64,000 nt of DNA from Eledone cirrhosa. Lineage: Eukaryota. A program made the translations under genes and the position numbers. Location of the stretch: contig OZ024740.1 of assembly GCA_964016885.1 (NCBI GenBank), positions 437,038,001 to 437,102,000 of the forward strand, given 5' to 3'. The notes under the pieces were generated by a model that had not been told where the DNA came from, searched no databases, and worked only from the letters and a program-made list of their open reading frames with translations. Below, piece after piece: positions 32,712 through 53,932 of the stretch (position 1 is the first letter of the stretch; the number at the start of each line of letters is the position of its first letter).

Positions 32712-32903
32712 AACGAAGGAAATGTGGTAAGGAACCAGATGGACCATAATGCACTAAAGTACTCAATACTTAGGGTAGTAGAGTCGGTAATAGGAACGAG
32801 TACGACACCGACGGCTGAGCTCAAGCCGTTTCGACGGCTAATTCTGTCCAGAATTAACCGTCGAAAAGGCTTGAGGTCAGCCGGCGAGGTCCTTCTCGTT
32901 CCT
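32712..32903. mobile_element. Palindromic mini-insertion of the family-G pLTR 3' half
   Basis: Head-to-head agccgtcgaaacggcttgagctcagccgtcgg arms in (TA)n; see 57487-57592. Confidence 0.85.
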
Positions 32904-33001
32904 ATATATATATATATATATATATATATATATATATATATATATATACATTGATTAAATCTTAGCCATTTAACATCTCAGGGTATGTCATGTATCATTA
33001 T

Positions 33002-33054
33002 ATTTTGTCTGATGAGGACGTACTGTTGTACCTCTGAAATATGTATAATAAAAT
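33002..33054 (+). ncRNA. Family-F hammerhead
   Basis: attttgt CTGATGA gga-c-gtac-tgtt-gtac-c-tct GAAA tatgta TA ataaaat. Confidence 0.85.
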
Positions 33055-33388
33055 TTAATTGATCAAAAGAACATCTATTTTATTAATATTTGTATTTTAA
33101 TATATATATATATATACGTATATGTGTGTATATGTATGAATGTATATATATGTGTGTGTATGTGTGTGTGCGTATATGTATATGTATGTATATGTATGTG
33201 TATGTGTATGTATATGTATGTATATATGTATATGTATGAGTGTGTATGTACATATATGTGCGTGTGTGTATATATATATATATATGTATATGTATATATA
33301 TATATGTATATATATATATATATATATATGTATATATATATATATATATATATATATATATATATATATATATATATGTGTGTGTGTG

Positions 33389-33578
33389 TAGGAGTAAGTA
33401 AGACCCCGACGGCTGAGCTCAAGCCGTTTCGACGGCTAATTCTGAGAATTAGCCGTCGAAACGGCTTGAGCTCAGCCGTCGGGGTCTTACTTACTCCTAT
33501 TTCCCACTCTACTACCCTAAGTATTGAGTACTTTGGTGCGTTATGGTCCACCTGGTTCCTTACCACTTTTCCCTCGCT
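33389..33578. mobile_element. Palindromic mini-insertion, family G
   Basis: ~55-bp inverted arms centred near 33443. Confidence 0.88.
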
Positions 33579-33746
33579 ATATATATATGTATGTATATAT
33601 ATGTATATATGTATATATATATATATATGTGTATGTATATATATGTATATATGTATATATATATATGTATGTGTGTGTGCATGTATGTATGTGTATTTGT
33701 ATATATATATATATATATATATATATATATATATATATATATATAT

Positions 33747-34455
33747 ATCATAAAACGTGTCTATAGAATCAATCAGATATTAAAATATATACTATTTCTT
33801 CCTCTAATCAGCATAATTAACCATATACATAATCAAATCTAGCAAGCTTTAAGAGTAAATTTTCTAACTGGGAAATCTCCGACAAATAATTGACCGCAGC
33901 CAGTTCGCGTTAACTCCGTTCCATTATTTATCAAATATTTCGGCCGCATGCAGAATCCGATCAAACATACCGTCAACCGCGCGTAATTAGTAGTAAAATT
34001 AAACTTCGAAGAAATGCGCACATACCGTAATTATATCTAGACCATGGTTTCTTCCTTGTTTAGGACATCCAAATGATATGGATTTTCCTGAGTCAGGATT
34101 TTCTTCAGGAGACAAACTCATAAATAGACATTTAATTTCTCGGACAGACCCCGCCAAATTTAGATTCAAAAATGGCTAGGATCGCTATGTAGCTGTGTAC
34201 CAGCCAGAGAGAAAGCGTGTGATTGGTCGCTTACGGCGGGTAGGCATGCTGCTAGAAAGCGCAGCCATATATCGCCAAATTTAATCTCAACCGATAGGGA
34301 GATTATCAAATATAGAGGTTATCACATACATAAAATTTAATTAAATTAAATCAATGATACATATATGTATTGCAACTGTTCACTTTTAAGCTCAATGAAG
34401 AATTAATAAGTTAAAATCAAAAGATCAGAGCATTACATCATAAAACGTGTCTATA
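33747..34455 (-). mobile_element. 690-bp non-coding HHR unit with 19-nt terminal redundancy
   Basis: atcataaaacgtgtctata at 33747 and 34437; flanked by (TA)n. Confidence 0.75.
34034..34114 (-). ncRNA. Hammerhead (family H) with extended stem II
   Basis: tgtctc CTGAAGA aaa-tcct..agga..atcca..tggat..tcct..agga-a GAAA ccatgg TC tagata; palindromic stem III, GUC triplet. Confidence 0.75.
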
Positions 34456-49789: not shown

Positions 49790-49967
49790 CAAAGTTTGTT
49801 TTATACATTTTGACATAACCAAGGAAAGATATCTTAACGGTTCAAGTTTTCCTTGGATAGTGAAGGGATAAGAGAAGAAAAGTCAGATATTTCAAATTAT
49901 TAAGATGAGTATGCAAATGAGGTTAAGGTATAGGGCTGGAAAAAAACGTTATTTTAGACGTTATGAG

Positions 49968-51860
49968 GATCCTGATAAAATCTAACAAAACAAATAATTT
50001 ATAAGGTATGGAAAAGGACGAATATAATAACCTTATATTGAAAGAACTCAGGAAAAACTACAAAATAACATCAAATGATCTTTCAACGTTAAATAGAGAA
50101 GCTTCTGAAATTATTTATAAATTAGGCATCCAAAATAGGACGGAACCCTTTATACCTAGAAAACCGAAGATTAACCTGAAGGACCACAAAAGAAATTTTG
50201 AAATTGAACTACCAGTCAGACTCATCGCACCATCTAAATCTGACTTAGGCATAATTAGCAAGCATATATTATATAGAATTATACCACTACTTAAAGAAAA
50301 ATCACACCTTAAACTATGGAACGGCACTAATGAAGTTATAGATTGGTTCAATAACATAAAATTAAAACATAACAAAAAATTCATTCAAATGGATATTGCA
50401 AATTACTACTCCTCTATTACCTCTAGCTTACTTAATAAGGCACTTATCTACGCGTCTAAACATACAGACCTATCTAGTGATGAAATGAATATAATTCAAA
50501 CAGCACGTAAAACACTAATAGAATTTAATAATCATCTCCGGACAAGAACCGACAGAAAAACAATTTTGATATGACTATGGGATCATCTGACTCGGCGCAA
50601 CTTACAGACCTCGTTGGATTATTTATTAATAATGTACGGCATAGGAAAATGCCAGAGATGGCCGGAGGTTTATATCTTGACGATATGTTACTTTTAACTG
50701 AAAACCATAGCAATAGTGAAATTAATAGGAAAAGGAAATCCAAAATACAATTTTTTAACAACTACAACCTTAATTTAGAAATCGAGAATAATTACAAAAT
50801 CGTTAACTTCTTAGATGTAACCTTAAACCTTAGCACAGGTCTTTACTATCCTTTCCATAAAATTAACGAAAATCTAAATTACGTAAGTTTCAATTCTAAT
50901 CATCCTAGAAGTATTAAAAACACTATTGTCAATAGCGTCCAGCAACGGATTTTTCGCATCTCTGCTAATAAAAATATTGTTGATGATAAGGCAGAATATT
51001 ACATTGAAGCTTTACATAGAGCAGGATACTCGAGTAAAATTAAATACATAGATAACAATAACATGACAAATCATCCTAAAATTAATTATAATAATAATAA
51101 ACAATTTAACTTAAACACTAAACCAAACAAAAAAACTAGAACTAGAAATATTATTTGGTACTCTCCCCCATTCTCATTAAGCGTTAAAACACCTTTAGCA
51201 AAGCTATTCTTTAAAGCACTAGATAAATGTTTTCCTAAAACCCACAGATACCACTCTATTTTTAAGAGACACACTATAAAACTATCCTACTCTACTACTA
51301 TGAACATTGCACAAAATACAAATAGAAACTTAAATTTAAACCCTAACCAAACTAACCAAAATAGCAATAATAATATTTCTAACAACAATATTCAGAATAA
51401 TAGTACCGTTCCGAACAACAACTCCAGAAAATGTAACTGTAGAATTAAATCAAAATTCCCTTTACAAAATAATTGCTTAGACAAGAACGTAATTTATAAA
51501 TGCACAGTTAAAACTAGAGACAAAGTATTTAACTATATTGGTGCCACTTCTACAAAATTCAAAGAACGCTGGTATAACCATAAACACACATTTAAGAAAT
51601 TCGATAAAAAATCTTCCACTTCACTTTCACATTTAATTTGGAACTAAAAAGACAAAAATATAGACTATTCAATATCTTGGAGAACGATTTCGAAAGCACC
51701 TGCATACCGAAATATGGCTTTCTCAAGATTCTGTAACTTGTGTATCGAGGAAATTTTTTATATAATTAATTGTCAAAACTCTATTAATCTTAAAACAGAA
51801 TTATTTTCTTCTTGCAGACATCGCCAAAATTCGATTTTCAGAAGTATTTTTAATTTATGA
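49968..51860 (+). pseudogene. Naiad-like RT + GIY-YIG, frameshifted
   Basis: INLKDHK..PVRLI.PSKS, DIANYYSSI, TMGS.D.A, GLYLDD, NFLDVTL, WYSPPF, YIGATSTKFKERW. Confidence 0.9.
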
Positions 51861-52968
51861 TATTCTTATACACCTTCAAAATGATCCTATTTTCTTTAAA
51901 ATTTAAATGTAATTTTTTTTTTTTTTTTTTTAAATGATCTTCCTTCTTAATTTTTTTAATATTTCTACTATTTTTACCTTTTGACATAAACTTTTTAATT
52001 TTTTTAAATATATATTTTTTTATATTTTTAATATTTTTAAATATTTTTTACTTCTGACATTTTTTTTGATGTAGTTTGATAATCTTTAATTGACATTCTT
52101 AAAATGTATCCTCTTTAGGATAGTTCTTCGAAATGCACGTTACGTTTTTCCTCTCCTTTTGATCTTCAAACTTTTACACATCTTTCGAATAAAATAATTA
52201 ATATCACACAAAATAATATATAATTTTCTCAATATATTTTCTGAGTAAATCATTCATCAAATTTAACGGTTAACAAACAAGATTGGAGTTATCTTTCCCT
52301 TTTCAATTGTGCAAAATTAAACATGATATTATAATAATATATACGATAAACTATATAACTTCGCTAAATTAACAATATTCTGAAAACATTTTCAATGTTG
52401 GAACAAAATATTCGAATTTACAAATTGTTCTCTTCTTACAACTTGAATCACCTGTTTTTTATGTAAAATGCAAAATCAACGTCCTTCGTAGTAAATTATT
52501 TCTATTTCTATAATACTTATACATGCAGAATTATTAATCTATATAGATATTTATACACTTATAACCTATTGTAATGTAATAAGATAAAATATACTTACAA
52601 CCATAATTCTTCATATAATCTAATTGATTATATATACAATATTAAAACTCATAATATAGCTAAATAAATTTAAATTCTGGAATCATTTCCACCATTCCCC
52701 CAAATTGTTAATTCCTTTAAAATTAACGTAAATGCAAGCTCTTCTTCCTTTTTCTTCTTCCTACATACATATATCCTAATTATTTAAATTCTGCATAGCG
52801 TCTAAAATAACGTTTATTTCAGCCCTATACCTCAAACTCATTTGCATACTCATCTTAATAATTTGAAATATCTTACTTTTCTTCTCTTATCCCTTCACTA
52901 TCCAAGGAAAACTTGAACCGTTAAGGTATCTTTCCTTGGTTATGTCAAAATTTATAAAACAAACTTTG

Positions 52969-53030
52969 TATTTTATCTGATGAAAGCGTACCAAAGTTTT
53001 TGGTACCCTTGAAATATATATAATAGAATA
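52969..53030 (+). ncRNA. Family-F hammerhead in Naiad pLTR
   Basis: tattttat CTGATGA aag-c-gtaccaaa..tttggtac-c-ctt GAAA tatata TA atagaata. Confidence 0.88.
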
Positions 53031-53730
53031 AATATTGTTTTATAAATATAGTTTCCATTTATTTAATATCATTGAATATTATACTCCAGAAAAGTTGACG
53101 AGTGCTCTGAATCAGTTCTAATCATTTATATTTGTTGAATTACCAACAAATTGAATATCCCTTCTGATTATATTGTTAATTTTAAAACCATTCTGTTGAG
53201 AACTTAATTCGTTTTGTGATATTTTGCAATTTGCAATAATAACACACATACTGAATTCATCCGCCAAAACTAAGGGTTGCCCCCCTTGTCGAGCCCCACG
53301 TGGGTTTTGATAACGGTCAGTCCTTGGTTTGGCACTTGAACTAAAAGCCTGTTGAGAAAGTGACTTCCTTGTTCAATCATCTTACCAAAAGCTTAACATT
53401 ATTTGTCTAAGCAGACAGTACCTGATTTAGGAGTTGCAGAAACCCAAATGCTGGATTTTACCAACCTTCCAGGGGTCCGGGTTTAATTTCAATCATATTT
53501 TATTTGTTTGACCCGAATTACTTGGTCGTTTCTATGGCTGTGCGGATAATGGTTTAACCATCGTCTCAGTGTGTTTGGCCTTTTAACTTATGTTGTAGCT
53601 CTAGTTCACTAGCTTCTATGGAGCGCTTGCCACACATCTCGGAAGTTGTTTTTCGGTAATTTCCAATAGCCGAAATACGATTCTCGCTAATTTATATTTG
53701 TATATATATATATATATATATATATATATA

Positions 53731-53932
53731 TAGGAACCAGTAAGACCCCGACGGCTGAGCTCAAGCCGTTTCGACGGCTAATTCTGGACTCTGCGTCCAG
53801 AATTAGCCGTCGAAACGGCTTGAGCTCAGCCGTCGGGGTCTTACTGGTTCCTATTACCTACTCTACTACCCCAAGTATTGAGTACTTTGGTGCGTTATGG
53901 TCCACCTGGTTCCTTACCACATTTCCTTCGTT
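53731..53932. mobile_element. Palindromic mini-insertion, family G
   Basis: ~59-bp inverted arms centred near 53792. Confidence 0.88.

Follow-up and report, generated by a model that had tools for sequence, protein, structure and literature searches.

Head-to-head ends are a described feature of EN+ Penelope-like elements (PLEs): in the available parts of PMC8557442 and PMC3846280, insertions such as Pen2a_Av have a 5'-truncated copy in inverted orientation beside them and a tail on one side only. An inverted arm with a tail is already published PLE anatomy. Furthermore, in vitro work on the anole PLE protein shows that it cleaves each of the two target strands and extends them, starting at two internal sites that bound the tail; the protein is predicted to be dimeric (PMC11167929). 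In the 64-kb stretch of Eledone cirrhosa DNA analysed here (the window), we found a PLE family with this anatomy and with one new detail, namely that most family copies stop at one spot within a hammerhead ribozyme. Among the papers listed by a search of the open-access literature, none reports in its title or opening abstract lines that PLE copies stop at a fixed 5' point within the ribozyme, which is a weak negative.

As described for EN+ PLEs, the Eledone insertions combine a head-to-head inverted pLTR piece, a tail at one end, a (TA)n target and a palindromic junction, and their pLTR appears to overlap the first ORF codons (PMC8557442; PMC3846280, parts available). An ATG at 57644 is the probable ORF start, judging from 12 codons that are open in 7 of 7 copies. 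The family differs from what those parts describe in that its dominant product is bodiless (140-200 nt), its tail measures about 78 nt versus 30-40, and its inner ends fall on one 7-nt edge whereas theirs vary in size.

The original prediction, made from the letters of the window, had listed four palindromes with an inverted arm of about 55-60 nt ending in CCTA and one non-inverted copy. We recovered all four palindromes (A-D) at the coordinates claimed, as well as the non-inverted copy F; the inventory had overlooked copy E, arm H and the parent copy G, which we used as the reference for mapping all arm ends (Table 1). A repeat search of the window was dominated by (TA)n.

Table 1. Coordinates of the family pieces in the window and of the landmarks on copy G.
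Feature	Position	Strand	Details
Copy F, non-inverted, long arm only	20696..20834	+	in (TA)n; 5' end at common edge (A57541 equivalent)
Palindrome A, whole	32712..32903	-	long arm 32712-32846; element 3' end at 32712
Palindrome A, short inverted arm	32846-32903		1-nt centre overlap with long arm
Palindrome B, whole	33389..33578	+	short inverted arm 33389-33444, long arm 33445-33578
Copy E	34469..34573	-	19-20-nt inverted arm, CCTA to ribozyme cut site
Palindrome C, whole	44919..45113	-	long arm 44919-45057, short inverted arm 45057-45113
Palindrome D, whole	53731..53932	+	short inverted arm 53731-53790, long arm 53795-53932
Arm H	55807..55838	-	32-nt inverted arm, CCTA to loop III; fused to 5'-truncated PLE body
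PLE body, decayed, 5'-truncated	55839..57480	+	RT thumb, linker Cys motif, GIY-YIG region to about 56716, then 3' UTR
Copy G	57481..57679	+	whole 3' pLTR with complete type I hammerhead
Hammerhead motif	57496..57600	+	core UUGA(C/A)AA 57496-57502, U3-A8 variant
Hammerhead helix II	57506-57514/57548-57556	+	upper hairpin 57523-57544
Hammerhead 3' part	GAAA 57559-57562, GUC 57579-57581	+	helix I 3' strand to about 57599
Common 5' edge of copies	57539..57547	+	edge 57541-57547; TTAGTC at 57539-57544
Proximal start site (CCTA/T)	57597..57601	+	outer end of every short arm
Tail, long arm only	57602..57679	+	about 78 nt; distal start site at 57679

Several observations bear on the assignment of these pieces to a PLE family. 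The body region 55839-56716 matched P0001 in tblastn (42% and 30%, E 5e-49) and had no Pfam match; P0001 itself shows an RT-like YRDD and a C-terminal VYIG by eye, without a significant Pfam match, and a related ORF of the window (31889) gave a weak GIY-YIG match below the cut-off. The body is consistent with a decayed PLE ORF. It is likely that H, body and G form one insertion, linked across the TA run at 57170-57226; the segment 57232-57586 was bridged by contigs in overlapping pieces. Of the criteria for a Neptune/Nematis-type clade (a Cys motif in the RT-EN linker, (TA)n targeting and RT phylogeny), we observed a decayed Cys motif in the ORF and TA targets; given the linker Cys motif, the family is probably not of the Penelope/Poseidon type. 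Inverted 5'-truncated head-to-head copies with a one-ended tail are represented by A-E and by H with G, along with loose ends at 57601. No full PLE copy with an upstream pLTR and full ORF was found within the window, and exact-pattern scans of metagenome and viral contigs returned 0 matches each.

The pLTR of copy G contains a hammerhead motif with core, GAAA, GUC and three helices, whose activity is putative; no Rfam hammerhead match occurred among the best 150 of 197 matches, those listed being microsatellite-driven miRNA noise and tRNA. The U3-A8 variant is described in PMC4209133, and the available part of that paper likewise reports, for metazoan PLE pLTR hammerheads, an extra base before helix II, a long helix II and a palindromic loop III, which here reads GAGCUC. 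Pairs of motifs on opposite strands, spaced 100-700 bp, are mentioned there too. Two points differ from the motifs in that part: helix III of the Eledone motif is a stable stem of 5 bp, and a stub, which retains just the 3' half of the ribozyme, cannot form the core by itself. Ribozyme cleavage was rejected as the main source of ends, as there is no depth step at 57582 and only E, one of the six inverted arms in the window, ends there. Non-LTR retrozymes consist of tandem units, each with a complete hammerhead, and have ends set by the cut site. That class was rejected as well: our copies are dispersed single stubs with half a ribozyme and lack the depth step.

Palindromes A-D lie in (TA)n, and all four short arms end in CCTA beside a dinucleotide run. 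Their centres differ at each of the four loci, as had been claimed: A and C have a 1-nt overlap, B is joined bluntly, and D has 4 filler letters between its arms, which might represent sequence beyond 57541 in the parent of a different subfamily. The arms of B (55 nt) and D (60 nt) match perfectly, and those of A and C show 8 mismatches in 57 nt and 6 in 59 nt, respectively; these differences lack an A-to-G pattern, and A-to-I editing was rejected as their source. Three diagnostic columns group the arms by locus and none splits them by side, confirming that each locus was copied separately and ruling out a single ancestral palindrome. For the same reasons, a MITE derived from one palindromic founder fails. 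The same junction types occur in contigs and raw reads of other samples, which rules out an assembly artefact. A-D are real, separately built head-to-head stubs of about 200 bases of a Penelope-like element. Copy E belongs to the subfamily of B; we found no long parent for the A-E subfamily.

The inner ends of these pieces coincide. On copy G, the short and long arms end at 57542/57545 (A), 57545/57546 (B), 57543/57541 (C) and 57541/57542 (D), and F starts at 57541. Therefore, all nine ends fall within 6 nt (57541-57546); the rough, post hoc chance of such clustering in a uniform 60-nt arm is 1e-8. In the predicted fold, the ends lie in a 3-nt bulge and the upper hairpin atop helix II (57538-57547). 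The claim that all inverted arms break in stem II held as far as proximity to helix II is concerned, but the breaks lie outside the core-flanking helix, and only four of the six inverted arms in the window break at the edge (E and H do not).

Reads and contigs confirmed that the inversion point is fixed for the family. Among the opposite-strand joints listed, which come from 15 of 50 joint rows, 11 of 13 place a side within 57541-57547 (binomial 1.5e-7 for a uniform span of 42 nt) and no side lies further upstream; the two exceptions, 57567-57576 and 57604-57654, lack the edge. Joint direction was deduced from side lengths, and many joints are single loci. Furthermore, on crossing the edge the depth climbs roughly 20-fold, by a factor of 24 for contig set X1 and of 20-29 for three RAD runs, and about 1 copy in 20 runs past it. 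The RAD step is confounded by AATT cuts, with read ends piling up at 57441/57444, 57536 and 57671, and the A-E subfamily has AATT at 57548-57551; we therefore did not use it as primary evidence. Contig set X1, whose library type is not on record, seems free of this effect.

The outer ends are equally sharp and were observed directly at 57601 and 57679. The CCTA end (57600/57601) lies 19-20 nt beyond the GUC site on copy G, matching the predicted distance of about 20 nt. At 57601, 3816, 3626 and 3459 reads and 313 contigs end and continue into (TA)n, and 20-26% of the reads at this position terminate there in (TA)n. These counts support the fixed TA-matching start that had been postulated. A TA match is nonetheless insufficient as the sole cause, because the long arm has six TAT/ATA sites and only the CCTA site and the 3' end join (TA)n among the loose ends listed. 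A second PLE family in the window has the same two-start layout with a 60-nt tail. Poseidon PAc of Anolis also has two starts bounding a tail downstream of the hammerhead, an AT-rich target, extension of both strands, and ends that are not mainly determined by ribozyme cleavage (PMC11167929).

How the short arm arises can be read from copies in which the two arms do not overlap. The original prediction, which is near the published self-priming model, held that a single cDNA turns back on itself at stem II, serves as its own template and is joined to the target at the TA of CCTA. Palindromic junctions are interpreted as self-priming in the available part of PMC3846280, the four centres are near-symmetric and join arms that belong to one subfamily, the reads contain symmetric joints repeatedly, and in 38 contigs the inverted arm precedes 57534. 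However, the long arm of E begins merely 8 nt before CCTA and is joined to an inverted arm; likewise, in 5 of the 11 edge joints listed the other side lies at 57607-57631, beyond the short arm, and in four asymmetric joints the side lengths are 61, 60, 55 and 55, that is, a full short arm. In E, H and these 5 joints the short arm therefore has no template in the long arm, which disfavours fold-back or a template switch as its general source and favours two primed cDNAs; fold-back would need extra deletions in these cases. Moreover, the blunt centre of B leaves no room for a priming loop, and non-inverted copies with the same edge, such as F, are left unexplained. We regard fold-back as improbable overall, although non-overlap could also be the outcome of deletions on one side of older symmetric palindromes. 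A plain stall of reverse transcriptase in stem II is also unlikely, because by the time of the stop stems I and III and the 9-bp helix II are already copied.

What sets the edge is a separate question. It probably represents the RNA 5' end, because it falls on the A of TTAGTC, the only match to the fly-type initiator TYAGTY in 57232-57680 (449 nt; 0.0014 per site, post hoc). The one-sidedness of the edge and the internal, TATA-less promoter in the pLTR of D. virilis Penelope (PMC2377424) also speak for an RNA start. Against it count the fly origin of the motif (PMC6483594), which may not be that of the host, the lack of a TATA box, Penelope/LINE DPE or pausing element at the expected place relative to the edge, and the D. 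virilis start site, which lies well upstream of the ribozyme, with 46 nt and a 75-nt intron before helix I.

Alternatively, two-primer insertion could meet a programmed stop, the element protein clamping the hairpin atop helix II so that the RT halts at its 3' foot, with which the edge coincides. The anole protein binds the ribozyme-containing region and aids its cleavage (PMC11167929), and TERT-bound helices adjacent to the template set the telomerase boundary (PMC4993307, part available). Yet the upper hairpin is weak (7 bp, AU-rich, in the predicted fold of one copy), about 1 copy in 20 passes the edge, and in vitro the anole product length tracked the RNA 5' end across the ribozyme (PMC11167929), which makes a programmed stop rather unlikely. 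We consider it similarly doubtful that a telomerase-like template boundary in the PLE RT stops both cDNAs, the ribozyme fold serving as a ruler rather than a knife and the process mass-producing 55-60-bp hairpin loci. RNA processing or DNA nicking at the edge is very improbable. The candidates would be a 3' splice acceptor (TAG 57540-57542 or CAG 57545-57547) or a nuclease opening the stem II hairpin. AG acceptor-like words do occur at the edge, and the D. virilis intron ends beside its ribozyme; but the loose ends that precede the edge do not agree on an upstream exon (agreement 0.37-0.48), and no depth step marks the cut site of the ribozyme itself, 57581/57582.

Our preferred reading, to which we give a probability of about one half, is that the copies are independent, stump-sized pLTR insertions in (TA)n, in which both target ends prime, each at its own fixed site, and each cDNA runs off the probable RNA 5' end. 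The endonuclease would cut both strands of a (TA)n target; each of the two target ends would then prime, one at the distal and one at the proximal site, by 2-3 nt of TA pairing, and the template would be a single RNA or RNAs of one subfamily. Both cDNAs would halt where the RNA begins, at the initiator-like A inside loop II, and their 3' ends would be joined head to head, overlapping by 0-3 nt or with a short stretch of filler between them. A symmetric palindrome (A-D) would come from a complete distal cDNA, a non-overlapping inversion from one halted near the proximal primer, an F-type copy from the lack of a proximal cDNA, and a long copy (H with G) from priming on the downstream pLTR. The locus-wise grouping of arms, the nine of nine ends at the edge, the edge joints, and E and H all count in favour of this two-primer run-off. 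As in L1 twin priming, both target ends would prime cDNA on element RNA and leave an inverted 5' part; unlike the process in the available part of PMC2246262, priming here uses an internal site that does not vary, and an overlap of 55-60 nt between the cDNAs is common. Second-end joining and a fixed 5' stop, both part of our reading of the Eledone family, are not covered by the Poseidon PAc study (PMC11167929).

The edge could instead be inherited if a few palindromic or stub masters were transcribed and re-mobilised whole, in a MITE- or SINE-like manner. Stubs are in about 20-fold excess and form distinct subfamilies with no long parent seen, and one junction, that of A (57542/57545), is found again at 4-5 read starts in each RAD run and in 4 contigs. 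The four centres at four loci, at least 13 different inversion joints and the locus-wise grouping of arms make such inheritance distinctly improbable; it may hold for the long arm, which fits two-primer insertion, and not for the inverted arm. If the promoter is internal, F-type stubs could act as non-autonomous masters.

Two accounts exist of how PLEs build head-to-head ends: self-priming has been proposed from genomes (PMC3846280, part available), and two-strand extension at two internal starts has been demonstrated in vitro (PMC11167929). The large stock of short copies and the two sharp landmarks of the Eledone family make the question countable, and the fixed edge leads to a precise prediction, namely that 57541 is either the capped 5' end of the RNA or a point where the polymerase stops. 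Furthermore, the palindromes are ready-made 55-60-bp hairpin loci, D having a predicted folding energy of -139.5 kcal/mol as RNA. Inverted repeats of Penelope have been suggested as a source of siRNA in D. virilis (PMC3136932, part available), and the Eledone palindromes could likewise feed silencing of their own family.

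We confirmed that the four palindromes noted earlier (A to D) exist at the places described, each combining a long arm with a short inverted arm. A BLAST search of the window with the Penelope-like element (PLE) family represented by A to D and by F, a non-inverted long-arm copy (20696-20834, +), recovered three additional pieces, E, H and G. One shared CCTA next to a dinucleotide run marks the beginning of each of the six inverted arms in the window; four break at the point originally noted, whereas the remaining two do not. Arm-to-arm differences are most numerous for the short arms of A (32846-32903) and C (45057-45113). 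These differences lack an A-to-G pattern and may reflect age, error-prone synthesis or assembly error. B and E belong to one subfamily, lie 1 kb apart in opposite orientation and share an ~18-nt stretch in nearby flanks (33750, 34435). The short arm of E (34554-34573) stops at the predicted ribozyme cut site or 1 nt beyond; this lone example would be compatible with a template that had cleaved itself.

Family pieces and unrelated inverted repeats in the window (arm comparisons by arm alignment)
Feature	Position	Description
A	32712	arms 57 nt, 8 mismatches
B	33389	arms identical, 55/55
C	44919	arms 59 nt, 6 mismatches
D	53731	arms identical, 60/60
E	34469-34573	short palindrome
H	55807-55838	inverted arm joined to decayed ORF
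G	57481-57679	reaches farther upstream than every other window copy
Unrelated inverted repeat	29120-29330	near-perfect fold-back, ~210 nt
Unrelated inverted repeat	16545-16658	short
Unrelated inverted repeat	25326-26297	221-nt pair, 99%, spaced 530 nt
Unrelated inverted repeat	48341-49000	inverted/tandem cluster with tRNA

The eight arms of A to D vary at 16 columns, three of which are common to both arms at every locus, while none separates short from long arms. At the other 13 the differences are scattered and, for the most part, affect just one arm of A or of C. Because three columns follow the locus and none follows the arm side, a single ancestral palindrome that later diverged is ruled out, in agreement with the predicted independent origin of the four loci. 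Arm likeness may also have arisen from later conversion between the arms of one locus.

G, a whole 3' pLTR with hammerhead, served as the reference for arm-end positions. It ends a 1.9-kb stretch that begins with H, with ORF remnants between them. These remnants resemble a 601-aa protein in which RT-like and GIY-YIG-like motifs were recognized by eye; neither the remnants nor the protein had a significant Pfam match. Since overlapping contigs span 57232-57586, the sequence upstream of G is part of the family, and we infer continuity across the TA run at 57170-57226. G folds as a type I hammerhead with a predicted cut after 57581; the fold has an energy of -34.7 kcal/mol and a z of -2.8, and 1 in 200 shuffles did equally well. 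Its core, UUGACAA, is the U3-A8 variant known from Schistosoma PLEs (PMC4209133), and position 7 is variable in reads, as expected. T57575A, a common variant (about half of RAD reads), makes the loop III palindrome (57568-57575) 8 nt long instead of 6, as might be expected if RNA pairing via loop III were under selection even in stubs. An ATG at 57644 opens a frame of 12 codons in 7/7 copies and would, by analogy, match the overlap between pLTR and ORF start described for some PLEs (PMC3846280).

In G coordinates, all eight arm ends of A to D, together with the point where F begins, cluster at 57541-57546; this is 35-41 nt upstream of the predicted cut site. At the centres, the arms overlap by 1 nt in A and C, meet without overlap in B and are separated by a 4-nt filler in D. 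Breaks had been placed in hammerhead stem II; they do lie in the bulge or upper hairpin atop helix II, but outside the 9-bp helix, which is already copied by then.

For a family-wide test, sequence data with the same species label, comprising three RAD-seq runs and a single set of contigs (4 of 11 runs; at most 4 samples from 2 studies), were aligned to 57232-57680 at 80% likeness. The depth ratio of 57562-57576 to 57517-57531 was 20.5, 27.5 and 28.6 in RAD-seq, where it is confounded by AATT-site cuts, and 24.3 in the contigs, whose library is not on record and whose depth does not equal copy number. The contig set is apparently uncut (T at 57550, 47% vs ~6-11% in RAD). Passage into (TA)n at 57601 occurs in 313 contigs and, in the three RAD runs, in 3816, 3626 and 3459 reads, or 20-26% of the reads at this position; inverted arms and tailless copies are indistinguishable in these counts. 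Among the best 15 of 50 joints, picked by support and many of them single loci, 13 link opposite strands. One side falls at the inner edge of the arms (57541-57547) in 11 of these 13, two lie off the edge and none farther upstream (binomial 1.5e-7 for 11/13 against a uniform 42-nt span, in support-chosen joints, many single loci). Of the 11 edge joints listed, two are symmetric as in A to D, and five have their other side at 57607-57631, wholly beyond the short arm. In four asymmetric joints listed, the side length equals the full short arm.

The short arm had been attributed to fold-back. Such a copy needs a long-arm template, and none is present in E, in H or in any of the five joints without overlap. 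Fold-back is therefore disfavored, and a second cDNA is the better reading of the short arm. Its primer would be the other target end, acting at the fixed proximal site (57601), and the long arm would be primed at a distal site 78 nt further 3'. Alternatively, the non-overlapping joints could be one-sided deletions of older palindromes. Priming of two cDNAs fits the anole PLE protein, described as cutting and extending both strands and initiating at a pair of internal sites that delimit the tail, with ribozyme cleavage dispensable (PMC11167929), and resembles L1 twin priming (PMC2246262). The same two-start layout, with a 60-nt tail, occurs in a second PLE family in the window.

This second family (8733-14109 and 45395-48314) carries minimal hammerheads at 8924 (-) and 48068 (+) and has a pair of 3' start sites separated by 60 nt. 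Its copy at 45395-48314 pairs a distal-start long arm with an inverted arm of ~100 nt that begins at the proximal site, and its ORF at 9130-12147 (-) holds a long Thr/His/Asn-rich stretch ahead of the RT. Three hammerhead-like motifs of other families lie at 30950, 33010 and 21003 (-), the last upstream of a PLE-like RT ORF (17496-19679, -). An open 1056-aa frame at 34673-37843 (-), in which Pfam identifies an APE endonuclease and an RT domain, is apparently an intact LINE ORF.

The window palindromes share with PLEs an inverted 5'-truncated copy, a one-sided tail and (TA)n targets, which are standard PLE anatomy (PMC8557442), and palindromic PLE junctions were earlier interpreted as self-priming (PMC3846280). 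The palindromes are real, independent events with a known layout. New here are the predominance of stubs in one family, an inner edge of 7 nt that falls within the ribozyme, and junctions arguing against fold-back; we found no description of such a PLE edge in the part of the open-access literature that was searched. D folds at -139.5 kcal/mol, and the hairpin-RNA output of the palindromes would stand as folding potential only.

The edge is one-sided and coincides with the A in TTAGTC; nothing else in 449 nt matches TYAGTY, reported as a fly initiator (PMC6483594), although this match is post hoc. Because of this position, and because the promoter of D. virilis Penelope is internal to the pLTR (PMC2377424), we favor the edge as the RNA start, both cDNAs running off the RNA 5' end at 57541. 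Against run-off, a search for downstream promoter motifs gave none, and in D. virilis Penelope the start is located upstream of the ribozyme (PMC2377424), whereas the edge here lies inside the ribozyme. The main rival, drawn by analogy from the protein-clamped boundary of telomerase RNA (PMC4993307), is that a bound protein would set the edge. If true, run-off at the RNA 5' end would explain both the excess of stubs and the non-inverted copy F.
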